A stretch of 43,830 nucleotides of DNA. Source: a virus. Taxonomy: Duplodnaviria; Heunggongvirae; Uroviricota; Caudoviricetes. This document shows, piece after piece, positions 9,001-15,000 of the stretch. The stretch's first letter is position 1. Every line of letters begins with the position of its first letter. The stretch lies in the IMG/VR virus record IMGVR_UViG_2839610755_000005. One strand, 5' to 3'. A program made the position numbers.

Positions 9001-12000
9001 ATGCAATAGTCGACACTGCAGTGGTTGATATATTACTGTTGCTTAATGCATTTTTTAACGGGCCAGGAAGGTCTTTAAAATTAAAACCTATTTCATCATG
9101 CAGAGGGAATATCTGTAAAAAATAATTACCTGATGTAGGATGAATATCTGGTTTTACAATGTTTAGCTGGACACCATATTTACCAGAGATGCCTGAAACG
9201 GAACTAGGTATCTCTAATGCCATTTGGGTAACATTGAATAAACCAAACATATCCAATGTTTTTTTTCCTATGGATCCTTCTTCAAGGTGAGGAGCTATAT
9301 ATTCGTCTAGCCCTGAGAGCAGACCTTTATCTTTTATCAAGCTCAGTAGAGCTGTTGTTTCACCGCATTCCGGTGCATGTTGCTGTATATCATCTGGAAT
9401 ATTAACAACAAATCCAGCTTGGCATCCTAGAGGTAATTCGGATTGCGGTATTTGTGTAGAGGGTATTTGTTCTGTTTGATGATGTTGATTGTTTTGTGAG
9501 GTGATTCCAGATTGTATGGTCGGTTGAATGTTCATAATAAATCCTTATTACATGTTTATATCCATTAATAATATCAATCCATTGATACTATTAGTGTCAC
9601 ATATCCGATGTGGACAGCTTTAATATATAACTGTTTGAATGCTTGATTGATGTGACTTAGATCTCAAAATTAAGTTGTTAAATTTACCAGTTTATCGCTT
9701 GAACACTTAAAATAAATTATAAATGTTTCTGTTATTGTTTTTTATAGTTTAAATTATTGTTGGTTGTATAAGCTGATTACATTTTACTCTAAGTGTTATA
9801 AATATTTTATACTGATATTAGTCTTATTATATATTTTTTTAATGAAAATGAGCATAAAACTAAGACATATAATGCTTGGCAGCTTTATGCTCTTCTGATT
9901 GGCTGTATGTTTGATGACAAAAAATTAGCGCAAGAGGACAAAAAATCACCTTGCGCTAATGCTCTGTCTCAGGTCACTAATCACATCTAACTCATTGATT
10001 AATTGTGACTCTAAATGTAGTGTTTTGTCGCGTTTTGCAGTCTATCATTTAATCAATTGTATAAATAACATAATGATTTTTAATGTGTTTTTGTGATTTT
10101 ATCCTCCTTCTGACATGGAAGTTGTTCGTTCAAAAATCTTATTAAATATCAAGTTGTTAAATCTGGTAAGTCATTATTGGTCAAAATAAAATCATTATCC
10201 GATTTCAATTTTGTCCCACTCCCGCCCGCGACTGTCCCTATAATGCGCCGCCATTGAATCAGATTTATGTCCAAGAAGACGTTGTGCAAACTTGTAGCCA
10301 ATCTGGTTCCGATATAGCCTCGCGGACAGACTACGTAGTTCATGAAATGTCGGTGGGTCTCCATCAAACGAGATCCCGGATGCATTTCGCGCCTTTGTTA
10401 AATACCGTGATACTGTGGCTGGAGAAAGTGGTTCGTGATAGGTTGATGCGATTATTGTTTCACTGCTGCTGGCCTCCCTGCATTTCTGTAGTGTATCAAC
10501 CAGTGAGATGTCGAGTGCGTCAATGGTTAGAGCCAGCGGAATGGCAATTTTGGCTCCTGTTTTACTCTGTCCAATGTGAAGATGACCATCGTTTATGTCT
10601 GACCACTTCATTCTGCACAAATCGCCCACTCTCTGCCCTGTAACGACAGCTAAATCCATTGACAGCCTCAGCCAGATGGGGAGGTGCTCAGCAGCATGGT
10701 AAATAGCGACATACTCATTAGCTGTCAGCCTTGAGCGCCTTACTTCTGACTTTGCTGCACGGGTTGTTGTTACTGGATTCGTTGCCACATGCCCCTCGGC
10801 TATTGCCCCTCGAAAAACGTCAACAAGGGTTGACCTGATTACTCTTGCGGAAACCGCTTTACCTTCTGCGACGTAGGTGTTTAGCATTGCTGCCACCTCT
10901 TTCGTTGATATGTCAGTGAGCGGTTTGTCCGGCAATTTTCTTCGAATTGCCCTGATTTTGCTGGCGTAGTCGAGTAATGTTTTCGGCTTGCTCCCCCTCT
11001 AGCTGAGGATTGTTTCATATCGATCAAGCCACGTATGAAGAGTGATTGAGTCAGTGCCTTTAACCCTGTCCAGCAATGATTCGTGCCCACTTTCGCTGAA
11101 AAGCTCAATGTTGGTGTGAATTCTACGAGCAATGAAATGCCTCGTGGAAGGATGCAGTGATGATTTTAATCCTTTTGATATTATTAGGGTACCAGATCTT
11201 ACTTACAACAAAGGATCTTTACAATGTGGATGATTAGAGGCCTGTGAGCCTGTTTAGGATTCTGTGTAAATGCCTTTTCTTAAAAGTGACCGTCAAGACG
11301 GTCACCAAACTCGATAATAAAGCGGCTCATTGCCATTCGCCAGTCCCTTAACGGCATTGTCCATTTCTGTGACGCGGCCTGGATTGCCAGCCACACCACT
11401 TTTTTTACTGACTCGTCCGTCGGGAACACCTTGCGTTTCCTGATGGCATGCCGGATCACACTGTTCAGCGACTCGATGGCGTTCGTTGTGTAGATCACTT
11501 TGCGGATATCTGCCGGATAAGCGAAAAACGTCGCCAAGTTAGTCCAGTTTGACAGCTAGCACCGGCTTATCTGCGGATAGCGGCAGTCCCAGGCCGCAGC
11601 AAACGCTTCCAGTGCCTGCTGGCCTGCCTCTTCTGTGGGAGGCTAATCGCTTTCAGGTCGCGAGTGACGGCTTTGTATTCCTTCCATGACACGAAGCGCA
11701 TGCTGTTGCGCACCATATGCACGATGCATAACTGGATGCGGGCCTCCGGGAATTCTTTCAGGCCATACACACAGGCGATGAGGATATCGTTCAGACCGCG
11801 GTTTTTCAGTTCAGTCAGCACATTGAACCAGAAATTCGCCCCTTCATTTTCGGCCAGCCGCATCCCCAGGAGCTCTTTCTGACCTGCGATATTGATGCCC
11901 AGTGCTAGGAACATTTTTATGATAAAAAATTAGTGCAAGAAGACAAAGAATCGCCTTGCGCTAATGCTCTGAAACAGGTCACTAATATCATCTAAATAGT

Positions 12001-15000
12001 TGACTCATAGTGACAGCATGTGTTGTGTCTTGCAGTATTATATAGCCTATTATTTAGATTGAAGCCATCATAATCTATTGATGTTAATGGTTTTTTATTG
12101 TTTGTTGTTCGGCTTTTTATACTAATTTGAGCGAAACAAAAAGATAAAAAGTTGTTTTTCGGTAAGCGTACAGCGAGGGCCGTATTGACGGGGATGTGTT
12201 ATTCAGCTGGCAGTGCTATGCGCCACGGAAGCAGTTCGCTGACCCGGTTGACCGGCCAGTCTGCTATGACGCCAAGCACATGGCGAAGGTAGCTTTCTGG
12301 ATCCACGTCATTCAGTTTGCACGTCCCGATCAGGCTGTACAGTAGCGCTCCCCGCTCACCACCATGATCAGAGCCGAAGAACAGGAAGTTTTTACGACCC
12401 AGACTGACCGCCCGCAGGGCATTTTCAGCGATGTTGTTGTCGATTTCCACCCAGCCATCGTTCGCATAGTACGTCAGTGCCGGCCACTGGTTAAGTGCGT
12501 ACGCGAACGCCTTCGCCAACTCTGAGTGTCGCGACAGGGTCTTCATCTTTTCACGCAACCAGCTTTCCAGGGATTTCAACAACGGTTTCGTTTTTCGCTG
12601 ACGTTCAGCAAGCCGCTGCTCTGCCGGCATTCCCCTTATATCCGCCTCTATGGCGTACAACTGACCGATCTGCTCCAGGGCTTCTTCCGTCAGTGCTGAC
12701 GGGATGCGGACGTGCACATCGTGGATCTTTCGGCGGGCATGAGCCCAGCAGGCAGCTTCCGTTATCCCACCATTGCGATACAGCTCGTTGAACCCGGCGT
12801 ACGCATCCGCTTGCAGCACACCGCTGAAGCAGGCAAGATGAGTCTGCGGATGGATGCCTTTTCTGTCCGGGCTGTAAGCGAACCACACTGCAGGTGCCAA
12901 CGCTGACCCTGCATTGCGGTCATCACGAACATACGCCCACAACCGCCCGGTCTTCGTCTTCTTATTACCCGGCAGCAGTACCTGGACCGGGGTATCATCG
13001 GCATGGAGTTTGCCGTCAGTCATGACATAGCCATGAAGCGCCTCTTCCAGCGGAGACAGCAGCCGGCAGCATGCATCCACCCAGCCCGACAGCAGTGAAC
13101 GCCTCAGCTCCACACCTTGCCGGCCGTATATTTCTGACTGGCGATACAGCGGGGTGTGCTCTGCATACTTCGAGGTCAGCACGCGGGCCAGCAGCCCCGG
13201 TCCGGCGATACCCCGCTCGATGGGCCGCGAAGGTGCAGGTGCCTGCACGATGGCATCGCACTGAGTACAGGCATGTTTTTCCCGTACCGTCCGGATAACC
13301 CGGAAGGCGCTACGCATCAACTCCAGCTGTTCGGCGGTATCCTCGCCCAGATAGCTCAGTGAACCGCCGCAGTTCGGGCAGCACGGCGCCGCAGGCAACA
13401 GTCGCTTTTCGTCACGGGGTAGTGATTCAGGGAACGGCTTACGGGTGCGGGTCTGACGCAACGGACGCTGTACTGCCGGGTCATACACCCTACCAGTCAG
13501 CGTATCGCTCTCTTTCTGAAGCCGGTTCAGATCGGCTTCCATTTGTGCGATACGGCGGGAGACTTTTTCGGAACGACTGCCGAAGTTCATCCGGCGGAGT
13601 TTATCCAGCTGCGCCTGCAGATGGTCTATTTCGCGCTCCCGGTTGCTCAGCTTTTCCTGCAGGGCGTGGATCAGCGCTTCCTGTTCGGCCAGGCGCTGTT
13701 TCAGCAGGAAGATGTCGTCAGAAGAGATGTCGTTCATAAGCCCGTATTTTACCGGGCTTATTCTGTGACAACCAGGATAAAGAGATTTACAGCATGGTCA
13801 GGGAGGTCAGCAGCCGCTTAGGCTGTCGCCAGTCGATACCTTCCAGCAGCATCGCCAGCTGCGCCTGCGTAAGGAACACTTTGCCATCACGGGCTGACGG
13901 CCAGGCGAAGCGCCCACGCTCCAGCCGTTTGGTCAGGAGGCACAGTCCGTCACCGGTGGACCACAGCAGTTTAACCTGACTGCCGCTGCGGCCCCGGAAA
14001 ATGAAAACATGGCCGGACATGGGATCGTCTTTCAGCGCCGTTTGTACTTTCGCAGCCAGGCCGTTGAAGCCATTTCTCATATCGGTGATACCGGCAACCA
14101 GCCAAATTTTGGTCCCGGAAGGTAACGGGATCATCGCTTCAGTTCCTGTATCAGCAGAGTCAGGAGCTTTTCGCTGACATTGCCATTGAAGCGGAGCGTC
14201 CCGTGCCGGAACGTTACCTCACAGCTGATACTGAGGGTTTCCGGGTCCTCTGCGAGCGATTCTGGCTGTTCGGCAGCTGCATCGAGAGTCACAGGAAGTA
14301 GCTGGGGGCTCTCTGAAGAAGGTAATAGCAGCTTTCCCTCGCGCCATTGTTGTCGCCATTTGAACAACAGATTGGCGTTAATGCCATTTTCAAGAGCAAG
14401 TTTTGAGATGGATATCCCGGGTTCACAGGAGGCAGCAACGAGCTGCTGTTTAAATTCGGGAGGATAATTAGGGCAGCCTTTTCGCCTGCCGGGAGTCACA
14501 TTTTTCTGCATATCTGATACTTTGGTTCCCACTACTTATTTGGTGGACACCACTTTGTCTAATTCGTCAGATTCTGACCAGACGGTTCAGGCTGTACGCT
14601 TACGTTTTTCGTGTCTTTAAGTGATACCAGATGGTATTGCGCTAAATGTACCAATGGGTATACCAAGAGCACTAAAAACAAAGGGGCAACCACTTTGTAA
14701 CCCCTTGATTATTTGCAGAAGCGCAGAAAATCGAACTCTGGAACCCTTTCGGGGCATCCTTTTTCAAGAATGAAGAAAAAAATAACTAAAAAATCAAGTT
14801 GTTAGGAAGTTATTCATGGCTAGTGTACCAACTCTTTTCTGGGCTAATAGCTATGATTTGTTTGTATTATTTGTCTCTGTCTCTATTATTTTTGACATCC
14901 ATGCGACTTCTGATATTGATAACCTCAGTTGTGGAGTTCTGTCTGCGCTTCCGGGAGGACGCATATCAAAACTACAGGATCTTCTGTTAAACACTGTAAA

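Follow-up and report, generated by a model that had tools for sequence, protein, structure and literature searches.

Two Lambda-Family Attachment Site Relics in the Effector Locus of an ompW-Integrated Lambdoid Prophage of Escherichia coli O157:H7

The Effector Locus and Its Features

Mosaicism is a known property of the effector loci of lambdoid prophages. Here, we describe two relics of lambda-family attachment (att) sites in such a locus, which probably mark seams between the ends of different lambdoid phages. The locus lies on a stretch of viral DNA of 43,830 nucleotides (IMG/VR record IMGVR_UViG_2839610755_000005), which is referred to as the window. The window is identical to Escherichia coli O157:H7 genomes of the FRIK2455/F1273 lineage and spans the right half of the lambdoid prophage Sp9 (strain Sakai), also named CP-933P or PPompW.

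From left to right the window carries gene J, which is split by an insertion sequence (IS), lom, tail-fibre genes, tfa, a frameshifted nleG (nleG'), nleA, the two att relics, ISEc8, espO1-2, nleG, espM1, IS fragments and a 3' fragment of ompW (ompW'). The coordinates of the relics and of the features that surround them are given in Table 1. Effectors of the type III secretion system (T3SS) are placed between the tail-fibre genes and attR, from tfa through nleG', nleA, (nleH, nleF), espO1-2, nleG and espM1 to ompW', which is the arrangement of an exchangeable effector locus. The phage-borne ompW fragment (20554-20674) exhibits 81% identity to ompW of E. coli K-12. The relics are internal to the ompW-integrated Sp9/PPompW and do not lie between ybhC and ybhB. 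Three segments of the locus are distinguished below: module 1, from nleA to an integrase pseudogene (int'); module 2, from a tfa remnant (tfa'), which is preserved in relatives of the window, to a short chromosomal flank; and module 3, the effector locus that follows.

Table 1: Features of the effector locus in the window.
Feature	Position	Strand	Remarks
tfa	6913-7182		followed by a frameshifted nleG
nleA	8209-9534	minus	annotated in an identical genome; effector cargo of the left att site (module 1)
Left P arm	9910-10104	plus	P1 homologue 9965-9984, P2 homologue 9997-10016, by alignment to the annotated Int-binding sites of lambda
Left sib/tI hairpin	9912-9971	minus	inverted repeat, intact, followed by a U run; aligns to lambda and HK022 sib
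Left core TCCTTC-TGACATG-GAAGTTG	10105-10124	plus	overlap TGACATG at 10111-10117, by alignment
Left P' arm	10125-10199	plus	P'1-P'3 homologues at ~10165-10198, overlapping the int stop codon as in lambda; aligned with lambda, HK022 and two attL sites
int' pseudogene	10195-11121	minus	internal stop, N-terminus gone; yfaT/HK022 clade
Deletion junction	11121/11122		1,674 bp lost relative to Sakai, from inside int' to inside nleF (BLAST of window against Sakai)
nleF 3' remnant	11123-11233	plus	111 nt; continuous with nleF in Sakai; carries the annotation 'type III effector, missing N-terminus'; what remains of the module 2 cargo
IS1414 (IS256-family) fragment	11246-11914	minus	adjoins the right sib/P arm; Sakai and RefSeq annotation
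Right sib and P arm	11915-12109	plus	weakened hairpin 11924-11970; P1 11970-11989, P2 12002-12021
Right core CGGCTT-TTTATAC-TAATTTG	12110-12129	plus	lambda overlap TTTATAC; C site one T short of lambda; B' differs from K-12 at one position
att-lambda right flank (ybhB side), part 1	12130-12161	plus	copy of the target duplication at 12154-12161
ISEc8 (IS66 family)	12162-14603	minus	termini GTAAGCG...CGCTTAC; later insertion, O157-specific
att-lambda right flank, part 2	14604-14642	plus	stops in the ybhB terminator hairpin, with 16 bp remaining to the ybhB stop codon
Phage-borne ompW 3' fragment	20547-20672		actual right end of the prophage, 8.4 kb right of the relics

A Repeated sib/P-Arm Block

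A repeat search revealed a direct repeat of 142 nucleotides at 9910-10051 and 11915-12056 with an identity of 77%. The same pair was recovered when the window was compared with itself by BLAST (E = 7e-24). The identity amounts to 86% in the first 80 nucleotides and to 64.5% in the remainder. The conserved block of ~75-80 nucleotides corresponds to the sib/tI hairpin and the arm site P1. Both copies align to attP of phage lambda (J02459), beginning at one and the same lambda position; the sib-att-int module has its left boundary there. The alignment of the left copy extends into int (69% over 1134 nucleotides), that of the right copy stops at the core (80.6% over 216 nucleotides). With attP of phage HK022 (NC_002166) the left copy matched over 1.2 kb (84.5%) and the right copy over 137 nucleotides (83.9%). 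Folding of the hairpin as RNA resulted in −29.6 kcal/mol (z = −6.8) for the left and −14.7 kcal/mol (z = −2.3) for the right copy; a simple terminator scan called neither sib hairpin, and the fold result was used in its place.

According to these alignments, the two blocks are the sib/P-arm parts of two different lambda-family att sites, and sib/tI, P1, P2 and a core are shared by both relics and lambda. An earlier note, made from the sequence alone, had assigned the same block of ~75 bp at both places to the P arm of lambda, which the repeat search and the lambda and HK022 alignments confirm. It had also proposed to align both blocks to lambda attP and to the attB region of E. coli. In these comparisons both blocks proved homologous to lambda attP, and the right-hand flank to the attB region of K-12.

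The Left Site: A yfaT-Type attP with a Decayed Integrase

The left site exhibits the layout of a lambda-family attP with sib, P1/P2, a core with a 7-bp overlap, P'1-P'3 and int, collinear with lambda and HK022. This agrees with its earlier description as an unrecombined P-O-P' followed by an int stub. As in lambda, P'1-P'3 lie over the stop codon of int, which is directed leftward, but the core is different. The cores read TCCTTC-TGACATG-GAAGTTG at the left site, AGCTTT-TTTATAC-TAAGTTG in lambda and TCCTTT-AGGTGAA-TAAGTTG in HK022. Thus, the comparison with HK022, which reaches 84.5% over the 1.2 kb of attP and int, shows kept arms and a switched core and overlap, as does the comparison of HK022 with lambda. 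In contrast to HK022, the overlap of the left site is TGACATG instead of AGGTGAA, its target is yfaT, and its int is a pseudogene. An HK022 specificity of the left site was ruled out by this differing core.

At the nucleotide level int' is 84.5% identical to int of HK022, 87.7% to int of a prophage integrated at yfaT in UTAK-22, and 69% to int of lambda. The earlier note had regarded the int stub as the remnant of a second prophage. With these identities the stub belongs with the left attP and does not represent int of a phage with lambda att specificity. In the nearest independent integrases (87-89% nucleotide identity) the match to the window begins only at the core or the P' arm and extends rightward, as is expected of attL. 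The UTAK-22 prophage is one of these and lies in the 3' end of yfaT (DUF1175). Its attL reads AACTTA-TGACATG-GAAGTTG, and the empty yfaT attB of K-12 reads AACTTA-TGACATG-GAAGGAC. The right end of the UTAK-22 prophage has the order nleG-tnp'-nleA-attR-yfaT' and is 92.0% identical over 2,011 bp to window positions 8113-10121, that is from nleA to the core. Directly past TGACATGGAAG the two sequences diverge, with yfaT following in UTAK-22 and the P' arm in the window. TGACATG(GAAG) is common to the K-12 attB, to attL and attR of UTAK-22 and to the attP of the window. At the level of sequence comparison, this occurrence of one overlap in attB, attL, attR and attP establishes the left site as the unrecombined attP of a nleA-carrying phage that integrates at yfaT. 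Consequently, ECs_1813 and its homologues can now be annotated as int of a yfaT-type nleA phage.

A functional cognate integrase is missing at the left site, the adjacent int' being dead, and no second match to the left int was found in O157 genomes at megablast sensitivity. The nleA-attP-int' unit was also found on plasmid pDEC5D-3 of an O55:H7 strain. Therefore, the nleA/attP relic unit has moved outside prophages, too. On this plasmid (57.8 kb, strain DEC5D; L019 4646-7768) the order is ykgJ'-nleA-attP-int' with 94% identity to the window, and the unit is located among IS and Tn3-family elements. In strain ZYB39 an integrase of the same clade (89% nucleotide identity) was found beside mdtA with yet another core, CCTTAAATAAGGTAAGTTT. 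With the arms kept conserved, at least four core specificities have arisen in this int clade.

The Right Site: A Lambda-Type attR with a Sliver of Chromosome

The right relic shares with lambda the overlap TTTATAC and, beyond it, the right flank of the attR of a lambda lysogen. It differs from lambda, apart from the overall identity of 80.6%, by a T run that is 1 nucleotide shorter at the C/O boundary, by TAATTTG for TAACTTG in B', and by its position in an ompW prophage. Copies from enteropathogenic E. coli (EPEC) carry CAGCTT in the core and the same run of five T.

The right flank of attB in the ybhC/ybhB intergenic region of K-12 matched the window at 12114-12159 and again, beyond ISEc8, at 14604-14642. 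ISEc8 is flanked by a perfect 8-bp direct target duplication, GTTTTTCG. Once the element and the duplication are removed, the flank forms one stretch of 70 bp, which corresponds to 78 bp in K-12. Identical nucleotides occupy 63 of the 70 aligned positions, and there is one gap of 8 nucleotides. The breakpoint between the flank and the espO1-2 side is located at 14642/14643. A record of a lambda-bio transducing phage (phage DN1) contains a matching stretch across the core into the flank, where it is annotated as 'attR site'. The joining of the P arm at TTTATAC to the ybhB-side flank, together with this annotation, identifies the right site by its sequence as a true lambda attR (P-O-B'). The flank homology likewise confirms the attB right arm that had been noticed there before. 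The site is not located at the chromosomal att-lambda beside ybhB-bioA; espO1-2 and nleG follow the flank.

The Region between the Two Sites

An IS256 fragment had been suspected between the sites and was identified as a partial IS1414 (~11246-11914). The deletion to its left removed the int'/tfa' junction, nleH1-2 and most of nleF. This arrangement was found in 61 complete O157:H7 genomes, and the lineage is consequently without these copies of the two T3SS effectors nleH1-2 and nleF. In Sakai, O26 and E2348/69 the older state is preserved, which reads int'/tfa'-nleH1-2-nleF-IS1414'-attR. There, int' lacks only ~23 codons, and in Sakai the int homology continues 76 nucleotides past the end of int' in the window. 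The adjoining tfa' consists of the last ~70 nucleotides of a tail-fibre-assembly gene and downstream sequence, with 92% identity to the tfa end of the window itself. The int'/tfa' junction falls within a microhomology of ~13 nucleotides, CAGTGTGTAGTAA.

Two other explanations of the junction in the window were discarded. Position 11121 is not the original truncation point of int, since the int homology of Sakai reaches 76 nucleotides further to int'/tfa'. An engineered deletion, suggested by GAATTC at the junction and GGTACCAGATCT nearby, was ruled out because 61 natural O157:H7 genomes share the junction and the KpnI/BglII-like string also occurs in Sakai.

A phage body appears to be missing between the two sites, and each effector block seems to start with a 3' remnant of tfa. 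The latter is consistent with repeated unequal crossovers at tfa. In EPEC-type copies (E2348/69, L018 5914-6736; L020 3228-3735) extra truncated tfa fragments were observed upstream of nleA.

In one reading offered by the earlier note, the two sites stem from a tandem lysogen, here taken to lie at att-lambda, of which the second prophage was reduced to a 1-kb int stub and an IS256 fragment. In its favour, P-O-P' followed by P-O-B' is the formal leftover of a tandem array, as found in tandem polylysogens, and a real tandem array of ompW prophages is present in the same window from 20675 onward (PMC8112680). However, the overlaps TGACATG and TTTATAC differ and the arms reach an identity of only 77%. 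Unlike those of tandem polylysogens, these att sites are heterologous. Because of the differing overlaps, an Int-mediated tandem integration at one attB is excluded. Furthermore, the int stub falls into the yfaT/HK022 clade and the locus lies inside an ompW prophage. We therefore consider a dilysogen at one shared site to be excluded. Of the earlier model the missing phage body is retained, since int' directly abuts tfa' in the undeleted relatives, whereas the att-lambda locus and the Int-mediated tandem at one site are given up, with overlaps of two specificities found inside Sp9/PPompW. The difference between the two cores, which that model had left unexplained, is real and is accounted for by two different source phages.

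Relation to Host-Derived att Sequences of the Same Locus

In PPompW effector loci, three att sequences of host origin (yecE, ykgJ/ecpE and ompW) have been described (Nakamura et al. 2021; PMC8112680). All three were located in the window, with identities to K-12 of 91% (yecE), ~71% (ykgJ/ecpE) and 81% (ompW). The yecE sequence, a 5' end, comprises 98 bp at 20228-20325 (90.8%) in inverted orientation, and stretches similar to the ykgJ/ecpE intergenic region (~71%) are present at 19866-20040 and 17279-17441. These yecE and ykgJ/ecpE-like snippets correspond to the published attB-in-PP_1 and attB-in-PP_2 (PMC8112680). With three further host-derived att snippets in the locus, at 71-91% identity to K-12, capture of chromosomal att DNA has been recurrent there.

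The right relic is also a host-derived att sequence inside a prophage effector locus. It resembles the published attB-in-prophage sequences in its short flank, in an identity of ~81-90% to E. coli, and in its position, as the effector locus and the prophage family are the same. In contrast to these, it originates from att-lambda, it retains a P arm and is thus a visible attR and not a bare attB, and no phage was found integrated in it in the spread sample of rows inspected. The main text of PMC8112680 mentions neither ybhC/ybhB or att-lambda nor a yfaT-type attP; its supplementary files were not part of this search. No other paper describing the relics was found, and in databases only an 'integrase pseudogene' and 'IS' are annotated.

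The published sequences offer another explanation for the right site, a nested integration followed by decay. A Sp3-like nleH/nleF phage would have been integrated by Int into an att-lambda attB snippet of the ompW phage, and attL, int and the body of the inner prophage up to tfa would later have been deleted, so that attR and the right half of the snippet remained. We regard this course of events as unlikely on balance, but as a serious rival, because nested integration is documented in the very same locus (PMC8112680). Intact inner prophages are known there for the three other host-derived att sequences, these snippets are present in the window with a similar divergence from K-12, and the retained flank of 70 bp is as short as the published snippets. 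On the other hand, 5,426 E. coli genomes and the contig scans revealed neither ybhC-side sequence nor an unoccupied relic-type B-O-B'. Moreover, a separate event would be required to put a yfaT-type attP-int directly to the left, and the origin of the snippet itself would be left unexplained.

Origin of Module 2

The closest counterpart of module 2 was found in a prophage at the native att-lambda of Z1323HEC0477. Its right end reads nleC-ykgJ'-tfa'-nleH1-1-IS256'-nleD-attR-ybhB-bioA, and its nleH, IS256' and att segments are 80-85% identical to module 2. This prophage end presumably represents the Sp3/CP-933K type. As in prophages of this type, with their tfa'-nleH1-1-IS256'-nleD-attR end, the effectors of module 2 are placed between tail-fibre genes and attR. 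Module 2 differs in that it sits, complete with att site and host flank, inside the effector locus of another prophage. Based on these similarities, module 2 is best read as the right end of a Sp3/CP-933K-like att-lambda prophage with 70 bp of its chromosome.

The flank of the relic is Escherichia-like and is characterized by AAAC followed directly by AAAAAGATAAAAAGTTGTTTTTCGTGTC, the 8-nucleotide gap and CGTGT. The native flanks of E. coli all fall into a band of 80-90% identity, without matches of 90-99%. Some E. coli carry one of the relic substitutions (GGT for GGC) and no other. A contig scan with TATACTAAYTTGAGCGAAAC detected attB in E. coli, E. ruysiae, Dryocola, Leclercia and Rosenbergiella, and the relic flank in none of these. 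Scans of metagenomes and viral sequences with the relic-specific flank returned relic copies only, including the CAGCTT variant of EPEC. Relatives of the left relic with 90-99% identity comprise the plasmid copy (nleA-attP-int') and a copy truncated by an IS3 element; these are not intermediates.

An aberrant excision of the lambda-bio type was also considered for module 2. In this case a prophage at att-lambda would have taken attR and adjacent host DNA with it and recombined with an ompW phage, and the host DNA would later have been trimmed to 70 bp. P-O-B' followed by contiguous ybhB-side DNA is the defining lambda-bio junction, as matched by the phage DN1 record from the core into the flank, and module 2 resembles the ends of native att-lambda prophages. 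Unlike lambda-bio phages, the relic has retained no ybhB or bio coding sequence, and its distal junction at 14642/14643 leads into effector-locus DNA and not into phage early-left genes. In addition, an unequal crossover of an incoming phage with a resident prophage would lead to an indistinguishable outcome. We consider this origin improbable.

Assembly of the Composite Locus

The order and the type of the recombination events given here are a proposal. It builds on features that are directly shown, namely which sites the relics are and their specificity, the chromosomal source of the flank, the homologies of the modules, their common ancestry and the sequences at the junctions. We consider it fairly likely that the ends of three lambdoid phages are stacked in the locus and that the relics mark the seams, produced by unequal or illegitimate recombination. 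Module 1 (nleA-sib-P-O-P'-int') would represent the att junction of a yfaT-integrating nleA phage, designated phage X, in its excised (circular or vegetative) configuration. Module 2 (tfa'-nleH1-2-nleF-IS1414'-sib-P-O-B' and 70 bp) would be the end of a phage Y in its integrated configuration, once at att-lambda of an Escherichia-like host. Module 3 would be the own effector locus of the ompW phage Z together with its attR.

As the most economical mechanism, the modules would have been joined by successive microhomology-mediated crossovers between lambdoid genomes. One of these would connect int of X with tfa of Y, another the host flank of Y with the effector locus of Z. If int of X recombined once with tfa of a genome already holding the Y end, a complete phage with both cargo blocks would result. 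Formally, this product would equal a collapsed heterologous tandem, made by homologous and not by Int-mediated recombination, and in this wider sense the tandem idea of the earlier note persists. Each crossover event would have added one complete 'tfa-to-att' cargo block. The composite would then have spread with the ompW phage, and the insertion of ISEc8 in O157 and the 1.67-kb deletion in the lineage of the window would have occurred afterwards. With respect to the seams, one junction shows microhomology and the other lies inside a hairpin.

Several observations weigh against a stacking of three phage ends. The tfa' of the relic gave no alignment with the tfa' of the native prophage of Z1323HEC0477 at the thresholds used. 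A native att-lambda site with the flank variant of the relic was not found, as the native sites of E. coli and the loci of eight species representatives all differ. No genome was found in which a phage body is still present between int and tfa'. Finally, the distal junction of the flank enters effector-locus DNA and not phage early-left DNA, unlike the textbook product of a lambda-bio excision. For the entry of the Y attR and its flank into the ompW phage, we rank an unequal crossover with a resident prophage first, an excision of the lambda-bio type second and nested integration third, the last being a serious rival all the same.

Distribution of the Relics

The right relic was detected in 542 genomes, 248 of which carry it uninterrupted and ~294 split by ISEc8. 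The ISEc8-free sequence, including the junction to the espO1-2 side, was found with 100% identity in O26:H11, O111, O103, O145:H28 and others (248 genomes). The double relic is present at 99-100% identity in O26, O111, O103 and EPEC O127:H6, with 99.2% in the B2 strain E2348/69. The composite thus occurs in the phylogroups E, B1 and B2 at 99-100% identity and, by this sequence conservation, is both old and mobile. Since Sp9 excises and is packaged (PMC2669165), the composite was carried along with the phage. No phage insertion at the right relic was detected: among the 542 carriers there was no class of matches of at least 99% identity that breaks at the core, based on inspection of a spread sample of rows in which a handful could be hidden.

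In O145:H28 strain RM12581 (L007 11253-12336) an IS1414-associated deletion fuses lom to the right relic. It took tfa, nleA, the yfaT-type attP/int', nleH and nleF, and the lambda-type attR alone survives. An open reading frame for EAST1 (astA) is annotated within the IS1414 copy of this strain.

Present-Day Activity and Implications

Both sites are probably inert today, since int is dead, the right core lacks 1 nucleotide at the C/O boundary and the rows sampled showed no phage inserted into the relic. That the relics still serve as usable att sites appears quite improbable. The left sib/tI hairpin, which is located between int' and nleA on the same strand, may still shield nleA against read-through transcription. 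The yfaT-type attP, which is intact in structure, may provide the excisable ompW prophage with a second integration specificity, and with a yfaT-type Int supplied in trans rearrangements of the chromosome between ompW and yfaT may be possible. Some O111 and related strains carry both the ompW composite and a yfaT-type element. The lambda-type attR may represent a fourth 'attB-in-prophage' landing pad, in this case for phages with lambda att specificity.

The P arm on the right relic suggests attR fossils as the source of attB-in-prophage sequences. If this is true, host-derived 'attB' sequences in effector loci would be the attR fossils of earlier prophages and not captured bare attB. The two relics add to the three host-derived att sequences already known in the locus. 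They provide a base-pair-resolved record of the assembly of the nleA / nleH-nleF / espO-nleG-espM1 cluster in ompW prophages of enterohaemorrhagic E. coli and EPEC. In this record at least three lambdoid phages with three integration specificities (yfaT, att-lambda and ompW) would be represented by their whole 'tail-fibre-to-att' ends, one in its excised form and one in its integrated form with a sliver of foreign chromosome. The locus is a new and well-resolved example of a known process, and it does not reveal a new mechanism or class of element.

Other Features of the Window

The host-specificity gene J (window 1-4779) is split by an IS3-family element at 1384-2597. Due to this disruption the prophage cannot make its own tail tip. 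Directly after ompW' a second ompW prophage begins with int (20718-21848, minus strand), xis, exo and later genes, and it continues to the end of the window at 43830. The tandem ompW array (20547-21848 onward) is common to ~30 O157:H7 genomes, and a tandem PPompW array is known for FRIK2069 (PMC8112680). In addition, a direct repeat of 98 nucleotides with 78.6% identity connects 11258-11354, the IS1414 end beside the nleF remnant, with 19430-19526, which is located downstream of the distal nleG-family gene. The second copy may be the end of an IS256-family element.

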